A DNA stretch of 49,408 bases from Candidatus Limnocylindria bacterium (GTDB lineage: Bacteria; Chloroflexota; Limnocylindria; QHBO01). The stretch is taken from positions 1-49,408 of the forward strand of contig DATBME010000054.1 of the NCBI GenBank assembly GCA_036555005.1, given 5' to 3'. The notes under the pieces were generated by a model. The model saw only the letters and a list, made by a program, of their open reading frames with translations. It did no database searches and was not told where the DNA came from. Shown piece by piece: positions 13,307 through 49,408 of this stretch (position 1 is its first letter; each line of letters begins with the position of its first letter). A program made the translations under genes and the position numbers.

Positions 13307-13419
13307 TGGTGGCTCACTCTAGCCCGCGCGCTGCAGCAGACAGCGACCGCGCCGGCGCGAGATGACTATCCTCGATGGCGACGCTGGAGACCGCTGCCGG
13401 CCCCATCCGGAGACCGCCG

Positions 13420-34240: not shown

Positions 34241-37150
34241 TCAGCGCGACGCGGCGATGGTGGCGGGTTGCGGTGGTTCGGAAGCACGGATGCCGGCGGC
34301 CCAGGCAGCCACCTCGGTCCGGCGCGCCACACCCAGCTTGGCCAGGATGTGCTCCACGTGGGCGCTGACCGTCTTTGGTGAGACGGACAGCTCGGCCGCG
34401 ATCTCGGCGTTGGTCAGGCCCTCGGCGATCAGCCGCGCCACCTCGAACTCGCGCACGGTCAGGGGCCGCCACGGCTCCTTCTCGTGGCCTCGACCGCGGC
34501 TCAACTTCCCGATCTCGTCGGCGCGGACCACGAGCGGCGGGCTGCCCATCTCCTGGGCTCGGGCAACGGCCTGCTCCAGGACGTCGGCGGCATCCACGTA
34601 CCGATTCATGCGCATCAGGCACTGCGCCAGGTCGAGTCGCGCGCTGACGGCCTCCCAGGCCCGACCGCGATCCTCCCAGCCGCGGATCGCGCGCTCGAAC
34701 GCCTCGCGCGCGGCCGTCAGCGACCCGCCGGCCAGGCGGACCAGCCCCTCGGCGTGGCTCAGCGCGGCTCCCGCGATGGAGTCCCAGCCGGCGAAGAAGT
34801 CCCGCGCCTGGCCCAACCACTTCGCGGCCGCGTCCGGACGTCGCGCGGCGAGGTAGCTCCGGGCGCCAGTCACCACGAACGGGATGAAGAGGGCTCGCTC
34901 GCCGCTCGAGCTTGCGAGGTTCCAGCCTTCCTCGCAGTGTTCAATCGCCGCGTCGGCCTGACCGTCCAGCAGGTTGGTCTCAGCCAGCCCCCACAGCGGT
35001 GTCAGGACGAGATGCACCTCACCGATGCGGCGGCCAACGGCCAGCGACTCGCTCAGCCAGCGCCGTGCCTCGTCCGATCGGCCCCGCCCCATCGCCACCA
35101 GGCCAATGACGTCCTGCCCACCGACCATTCCACGCCGGCAGCCGCGGTCGCTCAGGTCCTGCCGCGCTCGCGTATCGGCGTTGTCCCAGTGACCCGCCGA
35201 CCACTCGAGCAACGCGAGGGTGCCCGCGATCATCTGCCGGCAGTGGCTCTGCTCGATCGCGTCGGCGTACTGCAGGCCCTCGCCAATCGCCACGTTCGCG
35301 GCCTGCGGATCCAGGATTCGAGCGGCGAGCAGCGCCAGGTTGCGGTAGCCGGTGACGCCGACCGATTCGAAGCCCGCATCGCGGGCCTCGCGCGCTGCGT
35401 GCATCCCGTCGCGCATGCCGCTCTCGTAGTTGCCATCGACGATGTCGATGCGGCCGAGCATGATGTCGATGTCCAGGACCGTCTCGCGGTCACCGACCGA
35501 CGTCGCCAGTGCCCGCGCCGCTGTTGCGCGCTCTCGCGCTCCAGCCAGGTCCATCGCCAGGAATCGGCATTCGGCGTCCAGCACCATGAGCCAACCGCTC
35601 AGCATGTCGCGCTCGGTCGACGGTGGTAGGTCGGCGATGTCGGCGAATCCCTGCTCGATTGAGGCCAGCAGGTTCTCGGAGGGCTCACCGCGGCGGAGGG
35701 CAACGGAGAACAAGGTGATCTGCTGGGTGGCCGCCGCGATGGGTCGTCCCGCCTCGAGGTAGAGCTGTCGGGAGCGAAGCGCGGCCATCTCGGCGTCCTC
35801 GTTGTGCTCGATCGCGCCGGCCGCGTTCGAATACTCCTCGAAGAGCTTCGCCTGCTCGAGCACGGGTAGGTCGTCAGGCATGTTCGCGATCGCGCGCTGA
35901 TAGAGCTCGTAGGCCTCCTGCCGAGCCGAGATGCGGCTGGCCTCGTCCGCAGCTGACATCGACGTGCGGAAGGCTTGCGAGCGGAGGCCAGCGCGGTCGT
36001 AGTGACGGGCGGCGTGCACCACACTCGACGCCTCGAGGGCCAGCACGAACTCGGCGGCATGTGCGTGGAATCGCCGCAGCTGGGACGGCGGCAGGGCATC
36101 GTAGATGACGTCCCGCAGGAGCTGGTGGCGGAAGTCGTAGTAGCCGCCATCCACATACTGGAATGGATAGAGGATCGCTGCCTCCTCCAGTTCCTGGATC
36201 GCCGGCTCGAGATCCGCCATCGGCCGATCCATGACCCCGGCCAGGACTTCCGGCCTGAAGCAGCGGCCGATGACGGCTCCGGCCCGTGCGACCTCACGCG
36301 CATCGGGCGACAGCCTCTCCAGGCGGACCAGGACGGCGTCGCCGATGGTATCGGGCACGTGCGCGTCGCGGATCCGTCGCCCATCGGCCCGCGCCTCCGG
36401 GTCAAGGGCGGCGAGGAGCTCTTCGATGTGCAGCGGAATGCCGTTGGTACGTTCGTGCACGGCTTCGACCACGTCATGGGAAGCGGGAAGCTCGCCACCC
36501 AGAATCAGCGTCGTCGCCATGCCGGTCTCGTCAATGGTCAGCGGTCGCAGGCGCACTTCGTCCGCATGCCGCTGGCTGAGGATGCGGGATCGCCACTCCC
36601 GGTGGATGCCGTCAGCAGGGAACTCGTCGGCCCGGTAGTCCGCCACCACCAGGAGCGGCCGATCTGACGTATGGCGAGCCAGCTCGCCGATCACCTCCAG
36701 GCTCATCTCGTCGGTCCAGTGGAGGTCGCTGAAGATCAGCATCGTGGGTCGGTCGATGGCCTCCAAGATTCGGTCGGCGGCAGCGCGGACGATCAGGCGA
36801 CGGGAGCCGAGGGCATCGCCTTCGTGACGCCCGTCGATGGCCAGCAGGTCCTGCGAGAGCGCTCCCCACGCTTCGTTCTCGCGGAGTCCGGCGGCGAAGT
36901 CGCGGATCGAGGCCAGCGGGACCTGGTGGTCCTGCGGCGCAACGGCCCCGCCGTCAACGCGCACGCCCGCGGCCTCCGCCTTCCGAGCTGCTGCGCGGAT
37001 CAGGCGCGTCTTGCCCAGCCCGGCCTGTCCTGAAAGGAAGACGGCATTGCCACGTCCTGCATTCGCCTCTGCGATGAGCTGATCAAAAAGCTCAAGAAGG
37101 TCGTCGCGGCCAACGAGGATGGGGCACTGAACGTGACCGGCGCTGCTCAT
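34241..37150 (-). CDS. Large ATP-binding LuxR-family regulator (LAL/STAND: AAA_16 NTPase, TPR-like region, GerE HTH), copy 1
   Basis: ILVGRDDLLELF..., Walker A GQAGLGKT, Walker B MLIFSDLHWTD, a long helical repeat region, and C-terminal LTVREFEVARLIAEGLTNAEIAAELSVSPKTVSAHVEHILAKLG. TAGACT-N7-ATG at 37150; the track start is 37264. Confidence 0.85.
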   Translation of the reverse strand: MSSAGHVQCPILVGRDDLLELFDQLIAEANAGRGNAVFLSGQAGLGKTRLIRAAARKAEAAGVRVDGGAVAPQDHQVPLASIRDFAAGLRENEAWGALSQDLLAIDGRHEGDALGSRRLIVRAAADRILEAIDRPTMLIFSDLHWTDEMSLEVIGELARHTSDRPLLVVADYRADEFPADGIHREWRSRILSQRHADEVRLRPLTIDETGMATTLILGGELPASHDVVEAVHERTNGIPLHIEELLAALDPEARADGRRIRDAHVPDTIGDAVLVRLERLSPDAREVARAGAVIGRCFRPEVLAGVMDRPMADLEPAIQELEEAAILYPFQYVDGGYYDFRHQLLRDVIYDALPPSQLRRFHAHAAEFVLALEASSVVHAARHYDRAGLRSQAFRTSMSAADEASRISARQEAYELYQRAIANMPDDLPVLEQAKLFEEYSNAAGAIEHNEDAEMAALRSRQLYLEAGRPIAAATQQITLFSVALRRGEPSENLLASIEQGFADIADLPPSTERDMLSGWLMVLDAECRFLAMDLAGARERATAARALATSVGDRETVLDIDIMLGRIDIVDGNYESGMRDGMHAAREARDAGFESVGVTGYRNLALLAARILDPQAANVAIGEGLQYADAIEQSHCRQMIAGTLALLEWSAGHWDNADTRARQDLSDRGCRRGMVGGQDVIGLVAMGRGRSDEARRWLSESLAVGRRIGEVHLVLTPLWGLAETNLLDGQADAAIEHCEEGWNLASSSGERALFIPFVVTGARSYLAARRPDAAAKWLGQARDFFAGWDSIAGAALSHAEGLVRLAGGSLTAAREAFERAIRGWEDRGRAWEAVSARLDLAQCLMRMNRYVDAADVLEQAVARAQEMGSPPLVVRADEIGKLSRGRGHEKEPWRPLTVREFEVARLIAEGLTNAEIAAELSVSPKTVSAHVEHILAKLGVARRTEVAAWAAGIRASEPPQPATIAASR

Positions 37151-37157
37151 CGCGCGC

Positions 37158-37163
37158 AGTCTA
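37158..37163 (-). promoter_or_regulatory. Candidate -10 hexamer TAGACT (leaderless LAL copy 1)
   Basis: The minus strand reads TAGACTgcgcgcgATG. LAL copy 2 has the identical hexamer and spacing. Confidence 0.4.
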
Positions 37164-37185
37164 CGACGCCGCCGCCAGTGCCTCG

Positions 37186-37205
37186 CATCGGTCGAATGAC
37201 CGATG
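37186..37205. promoter_or_regulatory. Perfect 8-4-8 palindrome CATCGGTC-gaat-GACCGATG, a candidate operator in the LAL1 / DUF4242 divergent promoter region
   Basis: Two further direct copies of CATCGGTCA lie at 37240 and 37262, 22 bp apart. Confidence 0.4.
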
Positions 37206-37339
37206 AGTTCCCGGTGGGCTGACCGCCATCGCGCCCAAACATCGGTCAATCGTATTGGGGTCATCGGTCATGCACACGATGACGCCCTGACGTCCTGACC
37301 CGAACCTCGAGTGGCAACAGCCCGCCGCTGAGGTACTGC

Positions 37340-37994: not shown

Positions 37995-38246
37995 ATGCCA
38001 CTGTTCATGGACGTCCACGACATCGATGGGGGCGTCGCCGTGGGCGACGTGTCGAAGGCCCACCAGGCGGACCTCAAGACCCAGGGGCAATACGGCGTCA
38101 ACTACCTGCAGTACTGGGTTGACGAGAAGAACGGCAAGGTCTTCTGCCTGGTCGACTCGCCGGATGCCGATGTCGCGGCGCATGTCCACCGCGAGGCCCA
38201 CGGCCTCGTCGCCGATGCGATCTATCCCGTCGTCGAAGGCCAGTAG
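37995..38246 (+). CDS. DUF4242 (SCO4226-like) small protein, copy b
   Basis: 83 aa: MPLFMDVHDIDGGVAVGDVSKAHQADLKTQGQYGVNYLQYWVDEKNGKVFCLVDSP...VHREAHG. AGAGGAGA lies 8 nt upstream. Confidence 0.8.
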   Translation: MPLFMDVHDIDGGVAVGDVSKAHQADLKTQGQYGVNYLQYWVDEKNGKVFCLVDSPDADVAAHVHREAHGLVADAIYPVVEGQ

Positions 38247-38267
38247 GCCAGACAGGAGGAACCACCA

Positions 38268-38807
38268 ATGCGTCTGCCATTCGGCCGCCGCCTCTCGCTG
38301 GCAGCCCTCGCCGCGATCATGCTCATCACCTTCTCAGTTGGCGTGACGGCGGCCAGCAGCCGCCACCAGCAGCTGCAGCGTGCCCGCGAAGCGACTGCCA
38401 AGTTCCGCGACATCGATCGCGCCGCCGACAAGGGCTACGGTCTCCCGCCCGCCGGTCCGCTGCACGAGTGCATCTCCTCCCTGGACGGCACGGGGGCCAT
38501 GGGCTTCCACTACATCAACGGCAGCCTCCTGGATGACAAGGTCCAGGTTCGGAAGCCGGAGGCCCTCGTCTACGCCCCCAACCGGAACGGCAAGCTGCGA
38601 CTGGTCGCCCTGGAGTACGTGGTCTTCGCCGATGCCTGGACAAGCGACGAGCCACCGATGATGTTCGGCGAGATGTTCATGTTCACTCCCGCCCCGAACC
38701 GCTATGAGATCCCGGCCTTCTGGTCACTGCATGTGTGGCTCTACAAGCACAATCCGGCAGGCAGGTTCGAGCCGTTCAACCGCAGGGTCAGCTGCCACTG
38801 CACCTGA
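38268..38807 (+). CDS. Secreted protein of unknown family (signal peptide, C-terminal Cys-His-Cys)
   Basis: 179 aa. MRLPFGRRLSLAALAAIMLITFSVGVTAA is signal-like. CAGGAGGA lies 7 nt upstream and 21 nt after copy b. I recognise no domain. Confidence 0.65.
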   Translation: MRLPFGRRLSLAALAAIMLITFSVGVTAASSRHQQLQRAREATAKFRDIDRAADKGYGLPPAGPLHECISSLDGTGAMGFHYINGSLLDDKVQVRKPEALVYAPNRNGKLRLVALEYVVFADAWTSDEPPMMFGEMFMFTPAPNRYEIPAFWSLHVWLYKHNPAGRFEPFNRRVSCHCT

Positions 38808-38829
38808 CACCTGGCTGCGCAAGGATCCA

Positions 38830-38859
38830 CACGGGCCGCCTCTCCGGAGGCGGCCCGTG
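38830..38859 (+). terminator. Perfect 13-bp-stem hairpin after the DUF4242 operon (no U-tract)
   Basis: cacgggccgcctc-tccg-gaggcggcccgtg. Confidence 0.5.
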
Positions 38860-38897
38860 GCCGCATCGGGGCAGCCGGGGTGGCTTCGCGCCGCCGG

Positions 38898-38903
38898 TAG
38901 ACT
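38898..38903 (+). promoter_or_regulatory. Candidate -10 hexamer TAGACT (leaderless LAL copy 2)
   Basis: TAGACTgccggccATG(38911). Confidence 0.4.
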
Positions 38904-38910
38904 GCCGGCC

Positions 38911-41514
38911 ATGGACCTGCTCGAGCGCGACGAGCTGCTCGCGTCGCTGCGCGCCGAGCTGCGCACCGCCGGATCGACCGGCGCGATCGCGTTCCTGGAG
39001 GGCGAGTCGGGCGTCGGCAAGACGTCGGTCGTGCGGGCACTGGCGGCTGATCTCCCCCGCGCGGTGCGCCTGCTGTGGGGGGCCTGCGACGCGCTGTCGA
39101 CCCCCCGTCCGCTGGGTCCGCTGCTGGACATGGCGTCCGGTGGGGCCCGGCGGGTGGCGCAGGCGCTGGACGCGGGGTCGGCCAGCCATGCCCTGTACGC
39201 CGCGCTGCTGGCCGACCTGCAGACGCCCAGCCTGGCCGTCATCGAGGATGCGCACTGGGCCGATGAGGCGACGCTCGACCTGCTGCGCTTCGTCGGCCGT
39301 CGCGCGAGCCAGACCAGGTCGCTCCTGCTGGTCACGATGCGCGACGACGAGGTCGGCCCGGACCATCCGCTGCGCAGTGTCCTCGGCGACCTGGCGACGG
39401 CATCCGCCAGGCGCCTCCGGGTCAGCCCGCTGTCGCTCGAGGGCGTTCGTCGACTTGCCGCGAGCCAGCCCATCGACGCTGAGCGGCTGCACGCCGCCAG
39501 CGGCGGCAACCCGTTCTATGTGACCGAAGTGCTGGCGGCTCCCGGCTGGACCGTTCCGCCCAGCGTGCGGGACGCCGTGCACGCCCGGGTAGCGCGGCTG
39601 CCGGAGGCGACGCGGACGCCGCTCGAGGCGGTGTCGATCGACCCCGGCGCGGTGCAGCGCACCGTGCTGCGCGCGCTGGACATCGCTGACGACGCCGTCG
39701 CGTCGGCCACGGAGGCCGCGGTCCTGGTCGACGATGGTGACCGGCTCAGCTTCCGCCACGAGCTGGCGCGCCTGGCGATCGCCGACGCACTGCCGGCCGG
39801 CCGCCGCATGGATCTCCATCGGCGCATGCTCGACGCCCTGGTCGACCTGGGCGTGACCGACGTCGCCCGGCTGGCTCACCACGCCGCCGGGAGCGGCCAG
39901 CCGGCGGCCGAGCTGGAGTGGAGCATGGCCGCGGCACGCGAGGCCGCACTGGCTGGAGCTCATCGCGAGGCGGCGGCGCAGTACGCCAGGGCGGTGCGCC
40001 ACGCGGACCTCCTGCCGCGAAGCGAGGCGATCGACCTGTTCGAACGCTACGGGGAGCTGCTGATCATCATCGATCAGCCGGCGCGCGCCGTTGACATCTG
40101 GGAGCGAGTGGTCGGCATGCGGCGCGCGACGGACGACCGCATCGGCGTGGCCGTCGCCGAGGCGATGTACGCCCGCGCGCTCTGGACAGCCGGCCGCGGC
40201 GAGGAGGCATACCCGCTCATCTCCAGAACCACGGAGGCCCTGGAAGGCGAGCCCGATCCGCGGGTGTGCCTCGCCTTCGGGACGCGCGCCTACCTGGCGA
40301 TGCTCGCCCGTCGTTCGGAGGAGGCGGTCCTGTGGGCGCGACGCGCCATCGACCTGGAGCCGAGCGGCGAGTACGACTGGGTGCTGCCGATGGCCCTCAA
40401 CGCCCTGGGCTCGGCCCGCATCTGCGGCTTCCAGGACATCGGCGGCATCGACGACCTGCTGCTCTCCCAGCGGCGGGCCGCCGAGATCGGATCGCGACGC
40501 TACGTGGCGGCTGCCTACACCAACCTCGGCTCTGGCCTGGGCGAGATCCGCCGCTACGCGGAAGCGGAGCGCTACCTCCAGGAGGGCATCGACTACGCGA
40601 CCGCCGAGGATCTCGACTTCACGAAGAACTACTGCATCGCCTGGCTGGGCCGCGTGCGCTTCGAGCAGGGCCGCTGGCCGGAAGCCCTGGAGCTGGCGGA
40701 GCGCGCCCTGGCGGACGAGGAGATCTCGCCCATCTCGCCGATGGTGGCCCTCACCGTCCAGGCCCGGGTCGCAACCCGGAGGGGCAGTCCCGATGCCGCG
40801 CGGCCGCTGAAGCTCGCGTGGCGGCTGGCCGAGCAGAGCGGCGACCTGCAGCGCCTCTGGCCGGCGGTGGCGGCCCGCGCCGAGCTGGCCTGGCTGACCG
40901 GGTCGCCAGCCGATGCGATTGGCGACGACCTGCACCGGGTCCTCCAGCTGGCCCGTGAGAAGCGGCTGGCCTGGGCAATCGGCGAGCTCGCCTGCTGGCA
41001 GCAGCGGCTCGCACTCGACAACGCCACGGACGTCGCGGACGCCGCCGAGCCCTTCGCCGCGCAGCTCAAGGGCGATCACGTCGCGGCGGCGGCTGCCTGG
41101 CGCCGGCTCGGCTGCCCGTACGAGGAGGCATGGGCACTGGCCGACAGCGGCACCGAGGCGGCCATGCGCGACGGACTGGCGATCCTCATCCGGCTCGGGG
41201 CCGAGCCGCTGGCCGACCGCGTGCGCCGCTCGTTGCGCGCCCTGGGCGCGACCGGGGTTCCGAGGGCCCGCCGCCGGTCCACCGCGGCGGCACCGTCCGG
41301 CCTCACCGTCCGCGAGCAGGAGGTGCTGGCCTTGGTGGCCAGGGGGCTGACCGATCGCCAGATCGCCGAGCGCCTGTTCGTGTCGCCGAAGACCGCCGGC
41401 CACCACGTCTCGGCCATCCTGGCCAAGCTGGGCGTCAGCCGCCGAACGGAGGCGGCCGCCACCGCGCTCAGCATGGGGTGGATCCAGCCTGAAAATGGGG
41501 AGCCCTCCCGATGA
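38911..41514 (+). CDS. Large ATP-binding LuxR-family regulator (LAL/STAND), copy 2
   Basis: MDLLERDELLASL..., Walker A GESGVGKT, Walker B LAVIEDAHWAD, a helical/TPR-like middle, and C-terminal LTVREQEVLALVARGLTDRQIAERLFVSPKTAGHHVSAILAKLG. The track ORF is extended to 38704. Confidence 0.85.
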   Translation: MDLLERDELLASLRAELRTAGSTGAIAFLEGESGVGKTSVVRALAADLPRAVRLLWGACDALSTPRPLGPLLDMASGGARRVAQALDAGSASHALYAALLADLQTPSLAVIEDAHWADEATLDLLRFVGRRASQTRSLLLVTMRDDEVGPDHPLRSVLGDLATASARRLRVSPLSLEGVRRLAASQPIDAERLHAASGGNPFYVTEVLAAPGWTVPPSVRDAVHARVARLPEATRTPLEAVSIDPGAVQRTVLRALDIADDAVASATEAAVLVDDGDRLSFRHELARLAIADALPAGRRMDLHRRMLDALVDLGVTDVARLAHHAAGSGQPAAELEWSMAAAREAALAGAHREAAAQYARAVRHADLLPRSEAIDLFERYGELLIIIDQPARAVDIWERVVGMRRATDDRIGVAVAEAMYARALWTAGRGEEAYPLISRTTEALEGEPDPRVCLAFGTRAYLAMLARRSEEAVLWARRAIDLEPSGEYDWVLPMALNALGSARICGFQDIGGIDDLLLSQRRAAEIGSRRYVAAAYTNLGSGLGEIRRYAEAERYLQEGIDYATAEDLDFTKNYCIAWLGRVRFEQGRWPEALELAERALADEEISPISPMVALTVQARVATRRGSPDAARPLKLAWRLAEQSGDLQRLWPAVAARAELAWLTGSPADAIGDDLHRVLQLAREKRLAWAIGELACWQQRLALDNATDVADAAEPFAAQLKGDHVAAAAAWRRLGCPYEEAWALADSGTEAAMRDGLAILIRLGAEPLADRVRRSLRALGATGVPRARRRSTAAAPSGLTVREQEVLALVARGLTDRQIAERLFVSPKTAGHHVSAILAKLGVSRRTEAAATALSMGWIQPENGEPSR

Positions 41515-41569
41515 GGCCGGAGCCCGCCGGACCCTAGCCTCGTCCGACACCGCAGCCAACGAGGACGCG

Positions 41570-41842
41570 ATGCCGCGCTACGTGGTCGAACGCACCTTTC
41601 CCGGCGGGCTGGCGGTCCCCGCCGACGAACGCAGCAAGGAAGTCTGGCGCGGGGTGGTCGCTCGGAACGCAGACGAGGCGGTGACCTGGATCCACTCGTA
41701 CGTGAGCGATGACCACAGCCGCCTGCTGTGCATCTATGAGGCCGACGACCCGGACGCCATCCGCCGCGCGGCCGAGCGCAACCAGCTGCCGGTCGATCGC
41801 ATCACGTTGGTGACCGTGCTGGACCCGCACGCCTACCGCTGA
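41570..41842 (+). CDS. DUF4242 small protein, copy c (divergent subtype)
   Basis: 90 aa: MPRYVVERTFPGGLAVPADE...VTWIHSYVSDDHSRLLCIYEADDPDAIRRAAERNQLPVDRITLVTVLDP. GAGGA lies 5 nt upstream and 55 nt after the LAL2 stop. Confidence 0.8.
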   Translation: MPRYVVERTFPGGLAVPADERSKEVWRGVVARNADEAVTWIHSYVSDDHSRLLCIYEADDPDAIRRAAERNQLPVDRITLVTVLDPHAYR

Positions 41843-41863
41843 AGCGAGGGCACGTGGACGACG

Positions 41864-42886
41864 TCAGGCCGGCGGCCGCACCTCGCCGCGCTGGCGGATG
41901 ACGGAGGCCGTGGTCGCGCGCCAGTCGTAGCCGGCGGGCGACTCCTCGGCACCCAGCAGGCCCTGCTCCCGCAGCCAGCCGTCGTTGAACAGCTTCCCGA
42001 CGTAGTTCCGTCCGCCATCGGGCAGGATCACCACGAACAGCGCCTCGGGGTCGGCCAGGTCGCGGGCAACCTGCAGGGCGGCCCACAGCGCGGTGCCGCA
42101 CGACTCGCCCATCAGGATCCCCTCGGCGGCGGTCGCCTGGCGGGCGGTGAGCATCGAATCGCGGTCCGACACGCGCACGACCAGATCGCAGGCATCGGCG
42201 TCGTAGGTGGCCGGCCAGAAGTCTTCGCCGATCCCCTCGGTCAGGTAGGGCTGCGGATCGGCGCCCGAATAGACGCTCCCCGCCGGATCGGCGCCCACCA
42301 CCTGGATGGCGGCGTTCTGCTCGCGCAGGTAGCGGCCCGCCCCGCTGACGGTGCCACCCGTCCCCAGGGCGACCACCAGGTGGGTGATGCGGCCATCCGT
42401 GGTCTCCCAGATCTCGGGGCCGGTGGCCAGGTAGTGCGCTTCCGGGTTGGCCGGGTTGGTGTACTGGTCCGGCTTCCAGGCGCCCGGCGTCTCGCGCGCG
42501 ATCCGATCCGAGACGCGGTAGTAGGAGCGCTCGTCATCGGGGTCGACGTCGGTCGGGCAGATCACGACCTCCGCCCCGTAGGCGCGCAGCAGCGCGCGCT
42601 TCTCCTCCGACTGCTTATCGGCCATGACGAAGATGCAGCGATAGCCCTTGATGGCCGCCGCCATGGCCAGGCCGACGCCGGTGTTGCCGCTGGTCGGCTC
42701 CACGATCACGCCGCCGCGCCGCAGCAGCCCGGCCCGCTCGGCCGCCTCGATCATGGGCAGCGCGATGCGGTCCTTGACCGATCCGCCGGGGTTCATGTGC
42801 TCCAGCTTGCCGACGATGCGCGGCGCCACCCCATCGGCCAGGCGGTCGAGCGCGACCAGCGGGGTGCCCCCCACGGCCGCGGTCAC
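41864..42886 (-). CDS. Cysteine synthase / cystathionine beta-synthase-like PLP enzyme (no CBS pair)
   Basis: GGTPLVAL...LEHMNPGGSVKDRIA...EPTSGNTGVGLA. The GTG start leaves an unusually short N-terminus, and the frame stays open upstream without a canonical start. Confidence 0.85.
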   Translation of the reverse strand: MTAAVGGTPLVALDRLADGVAPRIVGKLEHMNPGGSVKDRIALPMIEAAERAGLLRRGGVIVEPTSGNTGVGLAMAAAIKGYRCIFVMADKQSEEKRALLRAYGAEVVICPTDVDPDDERSYYRVSDRIARETPGAWKPDQYTNPANPEAHYLATGPEIWETTDGRITHLVVALGTGGTVSGAGRYLREQNAAIQVVGADPAGSVYSGADPQPYLTEGIGEDFWPATYDADACDLVVRVSDRDSMLTARQATAAEGILMGESCGTALWAALQVARDLADPEALFVVILPDGGRNYVGKLFNDGWLREQGLLGAEESPAGYDWRATTASVIRQRGEVRPPA

Positions 42887-42905
42887 ATCGGGCAGGATGC
42901 CGCGC

Positions 42906-43808
42906 TCAGCCAGCGCTTGGCTCCGTGCTGGGTTCGGCCGATTCGGCTGCCTCGCCGTTGGCCTCGGTAGCGGCCGCCTCCCGGGCCTCCTTCTCCTTGA
43001 TCCAGGCGCCCGGCACCCCCCAACCCCGCCGGTGACGCAGCCACAGGAAGCCGCCCGCAGCGATGAAGGTGAGGACGCCCAGCCAGATTGCGGTCGGCAC
43101 GCCCAGGATGATCCAGTTCTGCGTCCGGAAGGTTTCCAGCCAGACGCGCTCGGCCGAGTACCACATCAGATAGATGAGCAGGATGTCGCCGTCATACAGC
43201 CAGTGGGCGAAGCGACGGCCGATCCACAGGATCACGCCGAAGCCGATCAGGCTCAGGATCGCCTCGTAGGCGAACAGGGGGTGGAAGCGCGTGGTCGCCT
43301 CCGGGAACAGGGTGAGGTTGGTCCATTCGCCGATGCGGTGCTCGGCGGCGATCGGGATGCCCCACGGCAGGTCGGTGGGCGGGCCGTACAGCTCCTGGTT
43401 GACGAAGTTGCCGAGCCGGCCGATGGCCTGGCCCAGCAGCATCGCCGAGGCGAAGACGTCCAGCCAGCGAGCGGTGTTGGCCCCGATCCAGCGCGTGTAG
43501 AGCCAGAGCGCCAGCACGCCGCCGGCCACCGCCCCCGGGATGCCGAGGCCGCCGCTCCAGATCTGCGGGATCAGGACCAGGTTCTGCGAGTAGAAGTCCC
43601 ATTGGTGGATGACGTGGTAGATGCGGGCGCCGATCACGGCCGCCAGCAGCACCGGCAGCAGCATCGACCAGCCAACATCGGGGTCCATGCCGCGGCGCCG
43701 CGCCTCGATGGTCCCGACCCAGCCGGCCGCCAGCACCGCCAGGGCGATGATGATCCCGTACCAGTGCACCTGGATGCCGCCGATCTGGAAGGCGACGGGA
43801 TCGATCAC
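42906..43808 (-). CDS. lgt: Prolipoprotein diacylglyceryl transferase
   Basis: IQVHWYGIIIALAVL...SGGLGIPGAVAGG...GQAIGRLGNFVNQELYGPPTDLPWG. TAGAAT-N7-GTG lies upstream. Confidence 0.9.
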   Translation of the reverse strand: MIDPVAFQIGGIQVHWYGIIIALAVLAAGWVGTIEARRRGMDPDVGWSMLLPVLLAAVIGARIYHVIHQWDFYSQNLVLIPQIWSGGLGIPGAVAGGVLALWLYTRWIGANTARWLDVFASAMLLGQAIGRLGNFVNQELYGPPTDLPWGIPIAAEHRIGEWTNLTLFPEATTRFHPLFAYEAILSLIGFGVILWIGRRFAHWLYDGDILLIYLMWYSAERVWLETFRTQNWIILGVPTAIWLGVLTFIAAGGFLWLRHRRGWGVPGAWIKEKEAREAAATEANGEAAESAEPSTEPSAG

Positions 43809-43818
43809 GCCGGCGATT

Positions 43819-45105
43819 CTAACCCGGCTCGCCGCTGAGGCTCCGGATCGCCTCCTCGGCCGATGTGGCGCGCTCGATGGGGCTTGGCTGGTCAGGGAAG
43901 CGCTCGAGCTGCCAGAGCATCGGGAACAGGCGCGTCCAGGCGATACCGACCACCAGCGTGGCCAGGCCGCCGACCAGGACCGCCGGCACCACGCCCCACC
44001 AGGCGGCGGTCACGCCGGACTCGAACTCACCCAGCTCGTTCGATGCGCCGATGAAGACGGCGTTCACCGCGCTGACGCGGCCGCGGATCACGTCCGGCGA
44101 CTGCAGCTGCACCAGCAGGTGGCGCACGTACATGCTGACCATGTCCGACGCGCCCAGGACGCCGAGTGCCAGCAGCGACAGCCAGAACGAGGTCGACAGC
44201 CCGAACACCACGATCGAGATGCCGAACACGAAGACGCCACCGAACAGCCAGCGCCCGACGGCGGTGCGCACCGGGCGCAGGGCGAGCACCCCACCGGCAA
44301 GCGCGGCGCCCACGGCCGGCGCGGCGCGCAGCACGCCCAGGCCCACCGGGCCGACGTGCAGGACGTCGCTGGCAAAGGCCGGCAGCAGGGCGGTGGCGCC
44401 GCCGAACAACACCGCGAACAGGTCGAGCGACATGGAGCCCAGGATCGGTGGATGGTCGCGCACGAAGCGCACGCCCGACAGCAGGCTGCGCAAGGTGGTC
44501 GGTTCGGCCGCCGCCGCGTCCACCCCGCCGCCGGCGCGTAGCCCCCAGATGAACCAGGCGGAGACCAGGATCAGGACCGTGACCGTCGCATAGACGACGC
44601 CGGTGCCGAGCAAGATCAGCAGGCCCGCCACCGCCGGGCCGGCGATGGTGGCGATCTGCATGGTCGAGGTGTTGAGCGCCACCGCGTTGCCGAAGTCCGC
44701 GCGCGGCACCAGGTTCGGCAGCAGCGCCTGGCTGGTCGGCATGTTGAATGCCCGCACCACGCCGAACATGGCCATCACCACGAAGATCGGCAGCACCGAG
44801 GTCACGCCGACCACGGCGAAGGCGGTTAGCAGGGCCGACGCGACCGCGGCCAGCAGGTAACAGGCCAGGATCACCCGCCGCCGGTCGTGGCGATCGGCGA
44901 TGTGCCCCGCCGGCAGCACCAGGATCACGAACGGCAGGAACTGCGACAGGCCGATCAGCCCCAGGTCGAGCGGGTTGTGAGTGGTCTCGTAGACCTGCCA
45001 GCCGACCGCCACGGTCTGCATCTGGACGGCGATGCCGACCAGGAAGCGGGCGCTCAGGTAGCGCCGCACGTCGGGATAGGCCAGGGACGAGAAGCGCGTC
45101 GACAC
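43819..45105 (-). CDS. MFS transporter (EntS/MFS_3-like)
   Basis: 12 predicted TM helices. The N-terminus STRFSSLAYPDVRRYLSARFL is typical for the family. TATGCT-N9-GTG at 45105; the track start at 45216 would overlap the divergent gene. Confidence 0.78.
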   Translation of the reverse strand: MSTRFSSLAYPDVRRYLSARFLVGIAVQMQTVAVGWQVYETTHNPLDLGLIGLSQFLPFVILVLPAGHIADRHDRRRVILACYLLAAVASALLTAFAVVGVTSVLPIFVVMAMFGVVRAFNMPTSQALLPNLVPRADFGNAVALNTSTMQIATIAGPAVAGLLILLGTGVVYATVTVLILVSAWFIWGLRAGGGVDAAAAEPTTLRSLLSGVRFVRDHPPILGSMSLDLFAVLFGGATALLPAFASDVLHVGPVGLGVLRAAPAVGAALAGGVLALRPVRTAVGRWLFGGVFVFGISIVVFGLSTSFWLSLLALGVLGASDMVSMYVRHLLVQLQSPDVIRGRVSAVNAVFIGASNELGEFESGVTAAWWGVVPAVLVGGLATLVVGIAWTRLFPMLWQLERFPDQPSPIERATSAEEAIRSLSGEPG

Positions 45106-45196
45106 GGGTCGCGCAGCATACCGGCGCCGCAGTGCCACCGCAGTCGGCAAGTGGCAGACTGCGCGGCACATCTCGCCGCGGAGGGACGAGGTACCG

Positions 45197-46579
45197 ATGC
45201 ACGAGCGCCCGGCCACGCCGACGGCGGCCGACGACCGCGACCAGTTCGGCCGGCCGAAGACGCCACTCGGCTTCGGCCAGCTGCTGGCGGTGACCGCCTA
45301 CTGGCTGGCGATCACCGTCCTGTGGGGGGCATTCACCTTCACCGTGATCCCACGCCTGGTCGAGTCGGATGGCGTGCTGGGCGACGCCGGGCACCCTTTG
45401 GCCGGGCTGGCGATCGGCGTGGTCACCACCGCTGGCGTGCTGATCGCCATCGTGGTGCAGCCGACGATGGGGGCCATCAGCGACCACACCCGCTCGCGAA
45501 TGGGTCGCCGCAAGCCCTACATCCTGGCCGGCACGCTGCTCGACATCGTCTTCCTCAGCTTCGCGGCCTGGGCCTTCTGGACGGAGAACTACTGGGCGTT
45601 CGTGGCGGCCGTGATCCTGCTGCAGTTCAGCAGCAACTTCGCCCAGGGCCCGTACCAGGGCTACATCCCGGACCTGGTGCCCGGCCGCCAGGTGGGGGTC
45701 GCCTCAGGCATGCTGGGCGCGGCCAACATCGCCGGCAACCTGCTGGGGCCGGGGCTGGCGATCCTGTTCGTGGCCGTCCTGCCGACCTTGCTGGGCTACC
45801 CAGAGATCACGCTGGGCCTGTTCGTCGTCATCGGCGCCATCGAGCTGATCACGATGCTGATCACGGTGCTGTTCGTGCCCGATCGGCCGGCGCCGCCCAC
45901 CGACCTCACCCTCCGTGAGCGGGCGTTGTCGGCCTGGGGCACGGACCTGCTCGCCCAGCGCGACTACGTCTGGCTGCTGGTCAGCCGGCTGTTCGTGCTC
46001 ACCGCGCTGGTATCGCTCCAGGCGTTCGCCGTCTTCTTCCTGGAGAACGCCCATGGCATGGAACCCAACGAAGCCCAGACCGCCCAGTTCCCGCTGATCC
46101 TGACGGTGGCGGTCGCCGCCCTGCTGAGCGCGATCCCCGGTGGGTGGATCTCGACTCGGGTCGGCCGCAAGCCGGTGCTGTACGTGGCCATCGGGCTGGG
46201 CATCGCCGGAGCGGCAGTGATCGCCACCGCGCCCGAGTACTGGATGGTGGTCGCCGCCGCCGTGCCGATCGGCATCTGCAGCGGAGTGTTCCTCGGCGTC
46301 GACTGGGCGCTGATGACCGACATCATTCCCAAGGCCGAATCGGGCCGGTACATGGGTATCAGCAACATCGCGGTCGCCGGCGCGGGACCGATCGCGGCCA
46401 CGGTCGGCGGCGTGGCCGTCTTCCTGGCCCGCCTCGCATCGCTGGGCCCCGAGCTGGCATGGCGAGGGATCTTCGTCCTGATGGCGGTCGAGCTGGTGAT
46501 CGGCGCCTGGGCCCTGCGACGGGTCACCGAACCGGCCCGCGCGACCGCCACCGCCGAGCAGGCGCCGTCCACGGCATGA
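45197..46579 (+). CDS. MFS transporter, GPH/MFS_2-like
   Basis: 460 aa. Loop motif ISDHTRSRMGRRKPYILAGTLL resembles the GPH-family D-x-T-x-S-R-x-G-R-x-R-P motif. Confidence 0.8.
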   Translation: MHERPATPTAADDRDQFGRPKTPLGFGQLLAVTAYWLAITVLWGAFTFTVIPRLVESDGVLGDAGHPLAGLAIGVVTTAGVLIAIVVQPTMGAISDHTRSRMGRRKPYILAGTLLDIVFLSFAAWAFWTENYWAFVAAVILLQFSSNFAQGPYQGYIPDLVPGRQVGVASGMLGAANIAGNLLGPGLAILFVAVLPTLLGYPEITLGLFVVIGAIELITMLITVLFVPDRPAPPTDLTLRERALSAWGTDLLAQRDYVWLLVSRLFVLTALVSLQAFAVFFLENAHGMEPNEAQTAQFPLILTVAVAALLSAIPGGWISTRVGRKPVLYVAIGLGIAGAAVIATAPEYWMVVAAAVPIGICSGVFLGVDWALMTDIIPKAESGRYMGISNIAVAGAGPIAATVGGVAVFLARLASLGPELAWRGIFVLMAVELVIGAWALRRVTEPARATATAEQAPSTA

Positions 46580-47331
46580 CCGGACCGGGCGCGACGCGAC
46601 CGGCCGCGGCCGCGCGCTATCCCGGGTCGCTGGTCATCGACCGCCGCTACCGAACCCTGTGGCGAACCGTGCGGTTCGGGGTACGCTTGCTGTATCGCGT
46701 GCGCGCGGTGGAGGTCGAGCGCGTTCCGGCCGCGCCCTACTGCCTGGTGCTGAACCATCACAGCGGCTGGGACCCACTGCTGGTCATCTCGGTCTCGCCC
46801 CTGGCGCCCCGCATCACCTGGTTCGGGCCGAAGGAAGCGGACCTGACCCGGGGCGTTCGTAACCGGGTCATCAACTTCTTCGGCTGCGCCATCCCGTTCG
46901 ATCCGGCGACCAGCTCGCTGACCGGCGCGGCACGCTCGGTGCGCCGCGTCTTCGACGCCGACGGCGTGCTGGGCATCTTCGCCGAGGGGCAGGTCGGCTT
47001 CCGCGAGACGGAGCTGCTGCCGTTCAAGGAAGGTGCGGTAGTGTTCGCCACCGCGTCGGGTGTCCCGATCGTGCCGGCCGCGGTGGTGGGCAGCACCTAC
47101 CTGTGGCTGGGCAGGCAGGTCGAAATCCGGTTCGGCGATCCGATACCGACCGCAGGCGTGAAGGGCCACACCGCCCGCGACGCGCTGGAGGAGCGTGTCC
47201 GCGCAGCATGCGAGGCCCTGTTGCCCGACAGCGAGCCGGCCCTACCCCGCCTGCGGCCGCTGCGGGTGCTGGGCGACCTGTTCACCGGTGGGGCCGACCT
47301 GGCGCGCCGGCGGGCTGAGCTCGGCGAGTAG
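46576..47331 (+). CDS. PlsC-family lysophospholipid/1-acylglycerol-3-phosphate acyltransferase
   Basis: ATGA overlap with the MFS stop. HX4D motif NHHSGWD, then IFAEGQV and GVPIVPAAV. Confidence 0.85.
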   Translation: MTGPGATRPAAAARYPGSLVIDRRYRTLWRTVRFGVRLLYRVRAVEVERVPAAPYCLVLNHHSGWDPLLVISVSPLAPRITWFGPKEADLTRGVRNRVINFFGCAIPFDPATSSLTGAARSVRRVFDADGVLGIFAEGQVGFRETELLPFKEGAVVFATASGVPIVPAAVVGSTYLWLGRQVEIRFGDPIPTAGVKGHTARDALEERVRAACEALLPDSEPALPRLRPLRVLGDLFTGGADLARRRAELGE

Positions 47332-47371
47332 CCGAGCGGCGCACACGCACGAGCCCGGCTAGCATCGGTCC

Positions 47372-47644
47372 ATGCTGCCGGTCATCTGGAGCGCATTCGC
47401 GGTCTGCGCGGTGGGCGGCTTCCTGATGGTGGCCGCCTACTGGCTGGACGTTCAGGATCGGCCGGACCTCTCCTTCCGCGGCCGCGTGGCCTGGTCGGCC
47501 GGGACGTTCCTCTTCCCGGTCGCGATTCCGGTCTATGCCTTCGCCGGCGGAGCCGACTGGCCAACCTTCCTACGGCTCGCGGCCTTCTTGCCGGCCATCG
47601 CGCTGCTGCTGTTCTTCGGCTTCGCCTTCGGCCTGTTCACCTAG
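47372..47644 (+). CDS. Small membrane protein, PLDc_N-like (cardiolipin synthase N-terminal domain family)
   Basis: 90 aa. AAYWLDVQDRPD...RVAWSAGTFLFPVAIPVYAFAG. TAGCAT-N6-ATG lies upstream. Confidence 0.55.
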   Translation: MLPVIWSAFAVCAVGGFLMVAAYWLDVQDRPDLSFRGRVAWSAGTFLFPVAIPVYAFAGGADWPTFLRLAAFLPAIALLLFFGFAFGLFT

Positions 47645-48164
47645 CCATGATGGCGCGGCCCACGACGAGTAATGCCGTGACGATCGCGCTGACGACTGCC
47701 AGCAGGAGCGTCGGCAGGGTGGAGGACTGACCCGCGTCCTCGCCGAGCAGCCGGTTGCCCGAGCAGAGACCGCTCGCCAAATGGTCTCCAGACGAGTCGG
47801 CGAATACCCGCCAGCGCTGGCCCTGGGCGAACTCGGCGCCGCATGATGCGCCGTTCTGGGCGGTGGCCACCTCGACCTCCTCCGGCAGCGGTCCGCCCTT
47901 CGCCACGCTTTCGACGGCGAACTCGAAGCGGACCTCCGCCGCGCTATTGCTGAACCAATGCAGGGCCCAGAAGGGCTCGGCCACGACGACGCCTTCGAAC
48001 ACGACATCCGCCGCGGCGAAGGCCTGCTTTTCCGTGAAGGCGATGCAGCTGCAGGCCATGGCCCGGTTGACTGGCACCATCGCCAGCGTGGTGGCTGTCG
48101 CGGCCGCGACGACGAGCGATGTGACGAGGCGCGCCATGCCAGCCAGACGCCGCGGCCGGCGCAT
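47637..48164 (-). CDS. Secreted, C-terminally membrane-anchored protein with a TIMP/NTR-like N-domain (mature N-terminus Cys-Ser-Cys)
   Basis: Signal peptide ...VPVNRAMA | CSCIAFTEKQAFAAADVVFEGVVV. Later cysteines lie in ASCGAEF and GLCSGN, and there is a C-terminal hydrophobic anchor plus basic tail. Possible starts: ATG 48164 (chosen), GTG 48185, ATG 48137. Confidence 0.6.
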   Translation of the reverse strand: MRRPRRLAGMARLVTSLVVAAATATTLAMVPVNRAMACSCIAFTEKQAFAAADVVFEGVVVAEPFWALHWFSNSAAEVRFEFAVESVAKGGPLPEEVEVATAQNGASCGAEFAQGQRWRVFADSSGDHLASGLCSGNRLLGEDAGQSSTLPTLLLAVVSAIVTALLVVGRAIMAR

Positions 48165-48202
48165 CGGTTTCTGCAAAGTGCTCACCCGCCTATCATCGCG
48201 CC

Positions 48203-49408
48203 ATGACAGTCGAGACCCGCGGCGTGGATGCCGCCCTGGCCTACCTGCGCGACCACGCCGACGAGCACCTGCGCGGCCTGGACGAGTTCCTGCGCATCGA
48301 ATCGGTCAGCGCCGACCCGGACCGCCGGGATGAGGTGCGGCGCACCGCCCAATGGGTTGCCGACGAGCTGACCCGCATCGGCGTCGACAACGCGCAGCTG
48401 CACGAGACGAGCGGCCATCCGATCGTCACCGCCGACTGGCTGCACGCCGGTCCCGACGCCCCCACCGTGCTGGTCTACTGCCATTACGACGTCCAGCCGC
48501 CGGACCCGTTGGACCAGTGGGTCCGGCCGCCGTTCGAGCCGCGCTACGAGGACGACCGCGTCTACGCCCGAGGATCGGGCGATGACAAGGGCCAGCTCTT
48601 CATGCACCTGAAGGCGGCCGAGGCATGGCTCGCCGGGGCCGATGGGCTGCCGCTCAACCTGCGCTTCTTCTTCGAGGGCGACGAGGAGGTCGGCAGCCTG
48701 CCGGTGGAGGAGTTCATCGCCGCCCGCCCGGACCTGCTGCAGGCCGACCTGGCCATCGTCAGCGACTCGGACATGCACGACGACGAGGGCACGCCGGCCA
48801 TCACCTACGGCCTGCGCGGCATCGCCTACTGGGAGGTCACGGTCTCCGGGCCGGCGCAGGACGTCCATTCCGGCAGCTATGGCAACGGCTGCGAGAACCC
48901 CGCCAACGTGCTGGTCCGGATGCTGGCCAGCCTGACCGATGTCTACGGGCGGGTGACCGTTCCCGGCTTCTATGACAAGGTCCGCGAGCTGTCGGACGAG
49001 GAGCGGAAGGCGTATGCCCAGATCCCGTGGGACGAGGAGGCCTGGCGCGATTCGATCGGCATCAAGCAGCCGATGGAGGGCGAGCCGGGCTATACGCTGC
49101 TCGAGCGCCTGTCGGCGCGGCCGACCTTCGATATCAATGGTGTGTGGGGCGGCTACCAGGGGGAGGGCTCGAAGACCATCATCCCCGCCTACGCCGCGGC
49201 CAAGCTCAGTACCCGCCTGGTCCCGGACCAGGATCATCGCGAGATCGAAGGGCTTATGGTGGAGCACCTGCAGCGCATCGCGCCGCCCACCGTTGACGTC
49301 AGCGTGAAGGTCATTCACGGCGGCCAGCCGGCGATCACGCCGCTCGCCCATCCGGGCGTGACCATCGCCGCCGAGGCCCTGCGCCTGGCCTTCGGCAAGG
49401 ACCCGGTC
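48203..49408 (+). CDS. M20-family metallopeptidase (dipeptidase/ArgE-DapE-like), truncated at the window end
   Basis: Hand translation; the frame is open to the window end and absent from the track. MTVETRGVDAALAYLRDHADEHLRGLDEFLRIESVSADP...VLVYCHYDVQPPDPLDQWVRPPFEPRYEDDRVYARGSGDDKGQLFMHLKA...LRFFFEGDEEVGS. TATCAT-N6-ATG lies upstream. Track ORF 48182..49351(-) is its antisense shadow. Confidence 0.85.
   Translation, partial: MTVETRGVDAALAYLRDHADEHLRGLDEFLRIESVSADPDRRDEVRRTAQWVADELTRIGVDNAQLHETSGHPIVTADWLHAGPDAPTVLVYCHYDVQPPDPLDQWVRPPFEPRYEDDRVYARGSGDDKGQLFMHLKAAEAWLAGADGLPLNLRFFFEGDEEVGSLPVEEFIAARPDLLQADLAIVSDSDMHDDEGTPAITYGLRGIAYWEVTVSGPAQDVHSGSYGNGCENPANVLVRMLASLTDVYGRVTVPGFYDKVRELSDEERKAYAQIPWDEEAWRDSIGIKQPMEGEPGYTLLERLSARPTFDINGVWGGYQGEGSKTIIPAYAAAKLSTRLVPDQDHREIEGLMVEHLQRIAPPTVDVSVKVIHGGQPAITPLAHPGVTIAAEALRLAFGKDPV

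Follow-up and report, generated by a model that had tools for sequence, protein, structure and literature searches.

A predicted membrane-anchored homologue of the TIMP N-terminal domain in Candidatus Limnocylindria and its possible role as a zinc-protease inhibitor

Could a bacterial protein that begins like an animal tissue inhibitor of metalloproteinases (TIMP) be a true relative of these inhibitors, and could it work as they do? The question is raised by a gene on the minus strand of contig DATBME010000054.1 of a Candidatus Limnocylindria bacterium, in the stretch of 49,408 nucleotides analysed here (the window). The whole open reading frame (ORF) of the TIMP-like protein occupies 47637..48185, with the stop codon at 47637-47639. 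An earlier note on this DNA, which took the ATG at 48164 (175 amino acids, in frame within this ORF) as the start, had described the product as mimicking the N-terminal inhibitory domain of TIMPs. Homology to that domain (N-TIMP), its fold and two of its disulfides could be regarded as essentially established. Mimicking was nevertheless the wrong word, for the protein is a member of a huge environmental bacterial family homologous to TIMPs, and no host mimicry is involved.

Eleven of the 24 N-terminal mature residues were identical to TIMP-2, and this recount against the PDB sequence gave the same figure as the earlier one. The later cysteines had also been placed in contexts like those of the TIMP partner cysteines, and the HMMER alignment agreed, pairing the cysteines of GASCGAEF and SGLCSGN with those of SAVCGVSL and ITLCD in TIMP-2. 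Searches of Pfam, NCBIfam and PDB (phmmer) with the single sequence gave only borderline matches or none, so profiles were needed. The TIMP family (PF00965) was the best single-sequence match in Pfam (E=0.033), spanning residues 44-129 (numbered here and below in the 182-residue form) and model positions 2-94 of 183, and its 14.4 bits missed the gathering score of 23.1. In PDB, TIMP-2 came first with a borderline E=0.19.

Two profiles were searched against PDB with hmmsearch, one from 38 close relatives (A2) and the other from 144 diverse relatives (A4). Profile A2 matched TIMP-2 at E=3.5e-6 and TIMP-3 at 0.055, and profile A4 matched TIMP-2 at 2.1e-10, TIMP-3 at 1.2e-7 and TIMP-1 at 8.8e-3. 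Each A4 match began at residue 1 of the TIMP chain (Cys1) and ended around residue 100, and TIMP-2 residues 1-102 were covered by the matches of both profiles. When A4 was compared with TIMP-2 residues 1-102 by hhalign, the probability was 97.5% (E=5.9e-12, 98 columns) with all four cysteines in register. Taken singly, 54 of the 144 relatives matched the TIMP model of Pfam with E<=0.01, the best value being 3.6e-10; apart from membrane-helix noise, no further Pfam family recurred among the relatives. The NTR model PF01759 found nothing in the window protein and matched one of the 144 (E=0.007). The search with TIMP and NTR models that the earlier note had proposed thus turned out significant and TIMP-specific at the profile level (3.5e-6, 2.1e-10 and, by hhalign, 5.9e-12). 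Because the family profiles and hhalign are significant, the resemblance to TIMPs is homology, not convergence or chance.

The predicted structure leads to the same family. Two AlphaFold2 (AF2) models were made, one of the mature domain from 35 sequences (pLDDT 82.2, pTM 0.77) and one of the full ORF from 144 sequences (pLDDT 86.9). Both contained a short helix followed by a beta-barrel, and the full-ORF model added a signal-peptide helix at residues 16-36 and a C-terminal helix at 157-181. When the models were compared with PDB by Foldseek, the top 18-19 matches were all TIMP-1, -2 or -3 for either model, with E down to 3.6e-6, TM up to 0.73 and a root-mean-square deviation of 2.7-2.8 A over about 105 columns. 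They were followed by agrin NtA, PCOLCE NTR and the C345C domains of complement C3/C4/C5 (E from 7e-4 to 3e-2), and generic OB folds such as RPA, CusF and cold-shock proteins were far worse than TIMPs. The OB/NTR fold that had been proposed for this protein is therefore what the predicted models return, in the form of an N-TIMP/NTR barrel.

Exactly four cysteines are present, at residues 45, 47, 115 and 141. Their patterns were read from 300 sequences aligned to the family hidden Markov model (HMM), and all four were kept in 260 of them. Cys47 and Cys141 were missing together in 11 sequences from at least five lineages (pattern CxCx), and Cys45 and Cys115 were missing together in nine sequences of one lineage (P0037; pattern xCxC). 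Where Cys45 was retained, Cys115 was retained too. The pairing rule was broken in three of the 300, and the remainder were N-terminally truncated or partial. The alignment supports the predicted pairs 45-115 and 47-141, which correspond to Cys1-Cys70/72 and Cys3-Cys99/101 of TIMPs. Cys115 (47841..47843) lies in a G-A-S-C-G motif at the position of TIMP-2 Cys72 and would be joined to Cys45, and Cys141 (47763..47765) lies in G-L-C-S-G-N at the position of TIMP-2 Cys101 and would be joined to Cys47, both assigned from alignment and covariation. The two TIMP-type disulfides of the earlier note were thus backed by pairwise cysteine loss. It was also right that the third is absent, as Ala57 stands at the position of TIMP-2 Cys13 and no fifth cysteine exists. 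In the P0037 cluster (195 amino acids, nine members) Cys1 has become Thr and its partner Gly, Cys3 and Cys~100 are kept, and the N-terminal register is the same (...S-S-A, then T-T-C...).

Compared with the N-domain of TIMPs (TIMP-2; MEROPS I35, PF00965; PDB 2tmp, 1br9), the bacterial protein is homologous along the whole domain and has the same predicted OB/NTR fold. The Cys-Ser-Cys start, QAF..ADVV, K-G, S-x-C-G and the two disulfide positions are common to it and TIMP-2. Unlike TIMPs, it has no third N-domain disulfide (Cys13-Cys~125, with Ala57 at the Cys13 position), it scores below the Pfam gathering threshold (14.4 against 23.1 bits), and the C-terminal domain with three further disulfides is absent, a transmembrane anchor being found instead.

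The ORF could be read from three starts, GTG at 48185 (182 amino acids), ATG at 48164 (175) or ATG at 48137 (166). Gene callers chose 48137, and the database protein P0001 has the same start and length (166 amino acids) with 99% identity. The GC content at third codon positions (GC3) was 0.85 in this frame, which a coding frame would be expected to show at the 71% GC of this genome and window. Its homologues number in the thousands in the profile search. Read from the sequence, the signal peptide (48054..48137, or up to 48185 if the upstream start is used) has a basic n-region, the hydrophobic core LVTSLVVAAATATTLAMVPV and the c-region N-R-A-M-A. The N-TIMP-like OB/NTR domain follows at residues 45-150 (47736..48053), supported by the profiles, hhalign, AF2 and Foldseek. 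It starts with Cys45-Ser46-Cys47 (48045..48053, codons TGC AGC TGC), the mature N-terminus predicted from the sequence and from family conservation. Residues 70-83 (EPFWALHWFSNSAA, 47937..47978) form a hypervariable segment at the position of the TIMP AB loop, assigned from the subfamily alignment. After a linker of about eight residues (149-156) comes the predicted transmembrane anchor at residues 157-176 (LPTLLLAVVSAIVTALLVVG, 47658..47717), and then the basic, presumably cytoplasmic tail RAIMAR (47640..47657), in which R182 is invariant and R177 nearly invariant in the close subfamily. In the predicted architecture common to the family, the signal peptide is followed by an N-TIMP domain with two disulfides, and a short linker then leads to the membrane helix and its basic tail.

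The place of the signal-peptide cut matters for the question, and signal peptidase I is predicted to cut between Ala44 (48054-48056) and Cys45, leaving CSCIAFTEKQAF. The junction of the window protein is VPVNRAMA, then CSCIAFTEKQAFAAADVVFEGVVV, so the signal peptide ending in an AxA motif (NRAMA) directly before Cys was confirmed, and A-M-A before C obeys the -3/-1 rule at the sequence level. Junction statistics were collected from 265 family sequences. Position -1 was Ala in 97% and position -3 was Ala or Val in 88%, position -2 was variable and often bulky (Leu, Tyr, Met, Trp) or Cys, and positions -4 and -6 were rich in Pro or Arg, with Arg or Pro at -4 in more than half. On the mature side, +1 was Cys in 100%, +2 was Ser in 85% or Thr in 6% (91% together, as in TIMPs) and +3 was Cys in 95%. 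No residue stood between the A-x-A site and Cys1 in any of the 265 sequences. Such rigid placement of the domain at the cleavage site is what the need for a free alpha-amino group would predict; one extra N-terminal Ala on TIMP is cited in PMC2871463 as abolishing inhibition. An extra Cys at position -2 was seen in 57 of the 265 members (...P-A-C-A, then C-S-C...; for example P0053, P0065, P0078 and P0082), leaving the precursor with an uneven cysteine count.

The strict lipobox fitted 19 of the 265 members (7%), and the motif [LVI][ASTVI][GAS]C is not satisfied by the window protein, which reads A-M-A-C with Arg at -4. The family junction is, as far as sequence can tell, a type I signal-peptidase site and not a lipobox, and the statistics agree with a cleavage that would expose Cys1. 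At the other end, a hydrophobic 17-mer was found in 83% of members, followed by a median of nine residues, and the hydrophobic anchor plus basic tail noted earlier in the window protein was recovered as LPTLLLAVVSAIVTALLVVG and RAIMAR, with a helix at 157-181 in the model. An LPXTG sorting signal was rejected, as the motif is absent from the sequence, and a Tat signal was rejected on sequence grounds too. Export with a free Cys45 and anchoring at the C-terminus is accordingly predicted with high confidence. On the three points that computation could decide against the earlier note, the predicted fold is OB/NTR, the predicted cut exposes Cys1 and the profile similarity is significant.

What such a protein might do could be derived from TIMP biochemistry. 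We consider it moderately probable that this single-domain bacterial N-TIMP homologue acts as a membrane-anchored inhibitor of zinc proteases. The precursor would be exported by its Sec-type signal peptide, whose A-x-A site lies immediately before Cys45, and the cut by signal peptidase I would leave Cys45 as the free N-terminus. The disulfides 45-115 and 47-141 would tie the N-terminal segment to the SCG connector and the last strands of the OB/NTR barrel. The helix at 157-176 and the basic tail would tether the domain, through a very short linker, to the outer face of the cytoplasmic membrane. Cys45-Ser46-Cys47 would be the counterpart of Cys1-Ser/Thr2-Cys3 of TIMPs, the zinc-chelating segment directed to the S1' site. 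By analogy, its ridge would enter the active-site cleft of a zinc endopeptidase outside the cytoplasm, where Cys45 would chelate the zinc through its alpha-amino and carbonyl groups, and the variable residues 4-6 and AB loop would set the specificity. Its role would likely be surface protection or regulation against secreted metalloproteases, either its own or those of competitors.

Several points weigh against inhibition. Most NTR modules are binding modules and not inhibitors. The protein lacks the third disulfide of N-TIMP and everything that corresponds to the C-terminal domain of TIMPs, and its linker of about eight residues holds the domain near the membrane, which would limit the proteases within reach. 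In one lineage (P0037) Cys1 is replaced by Thr, and signal-peptide cleavage and disulfide formation are predictions. No metalloprotease gene recurs beside family members in eleven neighbourhoods, and no extracytoplasmic metalloprotease was found in the window, neither among the ORFs at 1-37267 (Pfam) nor in the annotations of the syntenic locus L001, from which the genes at about 38000-49408 were read. Finally, when the NTR domain of PCPE-1 was engineered so that its first Cys became the N-terminus, none of the metzincins tested was inhibited (PMC2871463). The probability given to the inhibitor reading was held to a moderate level because no partner was found and because, as PCPE-1 shows, an NTR domain that starts at its first Cys need not inhibit.

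The neighbourhood of the gene was the natural place for a partner. The divergent gene that starts at 48203 encodes an M20 peptidase, with PF01546 and PF07687 matched at the orthologous loci. The N-terminus of the window enzyme, MTVETRGVDAALAYL, has no signal peptide; the M20 enzyme would therefore be cytoplasmic and could not meet an exported inhibitor. The caution that this linkage may be incidental was thus justified. Both M20 and M24 were rejected as protease targets, being of cytoplasmic types. No metzincin was found in the 49-kb window (Pfam scan of 1-37267, L001 annotation for the rest) or in ten other neighbourhoods. The window is collinear with L005 (Candidatus Limnocylindria, Chloroflexota, metagenome-assembled, DATEOS010000378.1) and the metagenomic locus L006, where the order is M24, HTH, M20, TIMP-like, a small ORF of 90 codons (orf90), acyltransferase, MFS, MFS, LGT and PALP. 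Flanking proteins are 79-92% identical to those of L005, against 47% for the TIMP-like protein, and the window probably derives from that lineage. The synteny M24-HTH-M20-orf90-acyltransferase-MFS is confined to close relatives, and eight more distant relatives had unrelated neighbourhoods with no recurring protease. The survey of homologues and their neighbours suggested by the earlier note therefore succeeded in one part, a large family, and failed in the other, as no protease recurred in the eleven loci. Neighbourhood evidence neither supports nor names a target. We thus infer inhibition rather than demonstrate it, because no protease partner recurs and the M20 enzyme is cytoplasmic.

The same lack of a protease neighbour in all eleven loci would suit the main alternative explanation, which we regard as possible though rather doubtful, namely that the domain is a non-inhibitory NTR/OB module, tethered to the membrane for binding or sensing, whose ligand could lie in the cell wall or outside the cell, or could be a partner protein such as an anti-sigma factor. 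This is how NTR modules of eukaryotes mostly work (agrin NtA, netrin C, PCOLCE, C345C), the predicted fold matches agrin NtA, PCOLCE NTR and C345C as well as TIMPs, and the PCPE-1 NTR domain with an exposed first Cys was non-inhibitory (PMC2871463). In the loci L008 and L011, moreover, an extracytoplasmic function (ECF) sigma-factor gene and the next gene lie directly downstream. This explanation is opposed by the sequence, in which the family stands nearer to true TIMPs than to other NTR modules: the profiles find only TIMP-1, -2 and -3, and PF01759 is matched in one of 144 members. It is opposed too by the N-terminus, for Cys1 as the first mature residue every time, with Ser/Thr at position 2, is the hallmark of inhibitory TIMPs and would be needless in a non-inhibitory NTR module. 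As for the sigma-factor genes themselves, which are followed by a possible anti-sigma gene (L008, 6734-8015; L011, 7000-8633), their adjacency in these two actinobacterial-type loci could be chance because ECF sigma factors are common.

If Cys45 were lipidated and the protein were a lipoprotein processed by signal peptidase II, its N-terminus, blocked and buried in the membrane, would preclude the TIMP mechanism. We judge this quite improbable. The Cys directly after the signal peptide and the small residue at -1 would fit a lipoprotein, a permissive PROSITE-style lipobox was found in 49 of the 265 members, and an LGT gene lies in the window at 42906-43808, though this is a housekeeping enzyme. 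Yet the strict form was limited to the 19 members given above, position -3 was Ala/Val and not Leu, position -2 was usually bulky or Cys, and Arg at -4, as in the R-A-M-A-C of the window protein, is excluded by the lipobox rule. A lipid anchor would also be redundant, because 83% of members already have a C-terminal membrane anchor, and Cys45 covaries with Cys115 as a disulfide partner.

It is very unlikely that Cys-x-Cys is a metal site (for example for Cu(I)) or a thiol-redox site on a CusF-like OB fold. The CxC motif is present, weak CusF matches were returned by Foldseek (E 0.2-0.3), and in one locus (L014) the family member is some 5 kb away from genes for copper oxidase, DsbD and thioredoxin. 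However, the motif never loses both its cysteines at once; each disappears with its distant partner (CxCx, xCxC), and the TIMP matches were better than those of CusF by 3-5 orders of magnitude.

The size of the family bears on its origin. An exhaustive profile comparison with 1.84 billion cluster representatives yielded 7,710 clusters (at 50% identity) when the limit was E<=1e-3 and 1,579 when it was E<=1e-10, and the stricter count was taken as the minimum size of the family. Of the 150 best matches, almost all were 150-250 amino acids long and carried ...A-C-S-C... about 20-50 residues from the N-terminus. Members occur in Actinomycetota (Streptosporangium, Sphaerisporangium, Microtetraspora, Planobispora, Planomonospora, Nonomuraea), Bacillota (Bacillus, Thalassobacillus, Paenibacillus) and Chloroflexota (a metagenome-assembled Candidatus Limnocylindria genome). 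The genome scan with a narrow alignment gave one locus only. Proteins fused to CarboxypepD_reg were not counted as members, as only the C-terminal half of the profile was matched (pattern --CC). Recent acquisition from an animal, or a host-mimicry effector, is hardly credible, for although 11 of 24 N-terminal residues are identical to human TIMP-2 and the literature usually presents TIMPs as metazoan (PMC4860685, PMC9409782), this number of clusters across three phyla, an architecture of its own with two disulfides and a membrane anchor but without the C-terminal TIMP domain, the host-typical GC3 of 0.85 and a conserved chromosomal neighbourhood in a free-living Limnocylindria-like bacterium all speak against it.

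Most members are annotated as hypothetical protein. A minority bear a precomputed PF00965 match and the automatic name Tissue inhibitor of metalloproteinase (JGI, UniRef), and because of these automatic labels the databases may be said to have partly flagged the family. By tblastn of a plasmid collection, further unannotated members were located on NZ_LT559118.1 (H1) and NZ_CP093325.1 (H2). These are listed as plasmids and are evidently chromosomes (11.85 Mb and 5.5 Mb), and their gene tables are nearly empty (10 and 25 features), with no feature under the tblastn matches.

Among known modules, agrin NtA, the NTR domain of PCOLCE-1 and the C345C domains of C3/C4/C5 (PF01759) belong to the same fold class as the bacterial protein, with undetectable sequence similarity; they are internal, C-terminal or non-inhibitory, and Cys1 is not at a signal-peptidase site. 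Bacteria do have other inhibitors of secreted zinc endopeptidases with unrelated folds, namely APRin/Inh of Pseudomonas/Serratia (MEROPS I38) and SMPI of Streptomyces (I36). In APRin, the N-terminal residue coordinates zinc. APRin and SMPI are soluble periplasmic or secreted proteins, APRin usually being encoded in a protease operon, and neither was matched in sequence or fold in the search results. APRin is stated to engage its metzincin in a TIMP-like fashion (PMC8235301).

The nearest precedent in bacteria is Tim of Listeria monocytogenes (PMC8235301), the only bacterial TIMP-like protein found in the literature. It likewise is membrane-attached, has a TIMP-like fold and occurs in a monoderm. 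Tim differs in being a lipoprotein (lipobox LTAC), in having about 50 additional residues at its N-terminus and in its phage origin. Its gene lies directly downstream of that of its partner, the secreted metzincin Mtz, by which Tim is cleaved. By comparison, the window protein has TIMP sequence homology, an A-x-A site directly before Cys, a C-terminal anchor and no adjacent protease, and it is unrelated to Tim in sequence and organisation. The authors of the Tim study (Boichis et al. 2021, PMC8235301) reported that they could trace no bacterial TIMP-like proteins in the literature. In reviews of TIMP evolution the family is presented as metazoan, with bacterial members unmentioned (PMC4860685, PMC9409782, PMC10755359). 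Beyond Tim, no paper on bacterial TIMP homologues was found in the literature, where a brief mention in further reviews is possible.

The comparison shows that a large bacterial family shares N-TIMP homology, fold, Cys-Ser-Cys placement and the disulfide pattern. It may tentatively be suggested that TIMPs predate metazoans, the bacterial family with two disulfides and an anchor being the ancestral stock of the TIMP/NTR inhibitory module. Under the same tentative suggestion, the family would comprise thousands of clusters, mostly in single-membrane bacteria, and its members could be surface-tethered, N-terminus-dependent inhibitors in an arms race with secreted metalloproteases. Such an arms race, if true, would account for the rapid divergence relative to syntenic neighbours, the hypervariability of the AB loop and the tandem arrays of paralogues described below. 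If inhibition is true, soil and aquatic bacteria would possess a widespread and unrecognised means of controlling extracellular proteases, inhibitor engineering would gain a minimal N-TIMP scaffold with two disulfides and about 100 residues, and the family would matter for the question of how the TIMP/NTR module arose in evolution. If the proteins are non-inhibitory, they would show an ancestral use of the NTR fold. The main interest lies in a very large, apparently uncharacterised family that bears on the origin of TIMPs and of which some members are already auto-labelled TIMP.

The rate of divergence was estimated from amino-acid identities between the window and the syntenic loci L005 (TIMP-like gene 891-1334) and L006 (6046-6480). 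The TIMP-like proteins were 47-48% identical, and their mature domains 53%. Identities of the other products were 92-94% for M20, 91-93% for the two MFS genes, 91% for PALP, 86-88% for orf90, 84-85% for LGT and 79-81% for the acyltransferase. The low identity of the TIMP-like genes reflects either unusually fast evolution or differential retention of paralogues at the same site. Tandem paralogues do occur, with four copies in L007 (5436-7904), the last one frameshifted, and two in L013 (5251-6588). Within the protein, residues 70-83 were the least conserved in the subfamily alignment (15% identity, entropy 2.34) and the block of lowest confidence in both AF2 models. Residues 4-6, after Cys-Ser-Cys, were also variable, and the GASCG connector and the core strands were conserved. 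Inhibitors, surface proteins and others under diversifying pressure typically show such patterns, which are no proof of function.

The ORF orf90 encodes a hydrophobic protein of 90 amino acids at 47372-47644 on the plus strand, without a Pfam family. It runs towards the TIMP-like gene, the two overlapping by 8 bp at the 3' end of the latter, and in L007 it adjoins the acyltransferase and not the TIMP-like genes.

The housekeeping and regulatory genes of the window include MFS transporters, a GAF-PAS histidine kinase, response regulators, an ABC-F ATPase, LGT, glutamyl/glutaminyl-tRNA synthetase, citrate synthase, malate dehydrogenase and two large LuxR/AAA_16 regulators, and no tRNA gene or Rfam match was found in it. 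One gene (13375-14472, plus strand) encodes a secreted lysyl-oxidase-like protein (Pfam Lysyl_oxidase PF01186, E=7.6e-10) with a signal peptide and the motifs GHNHWH and QWIDITG. This is a second domain of the animal extracellular-matrix type in the window, and the two genes are probably unlinked because they are 34 kb apart. The two LuxR-family regulators (AAA_16, TPR, GerE) lie at 34241-37267 on the minus strand and at 38704-41514 on the plus strand, and between them small proteins are encoded, among them SCO4226-like ones and one of 179 amino acids without a Pfam match.

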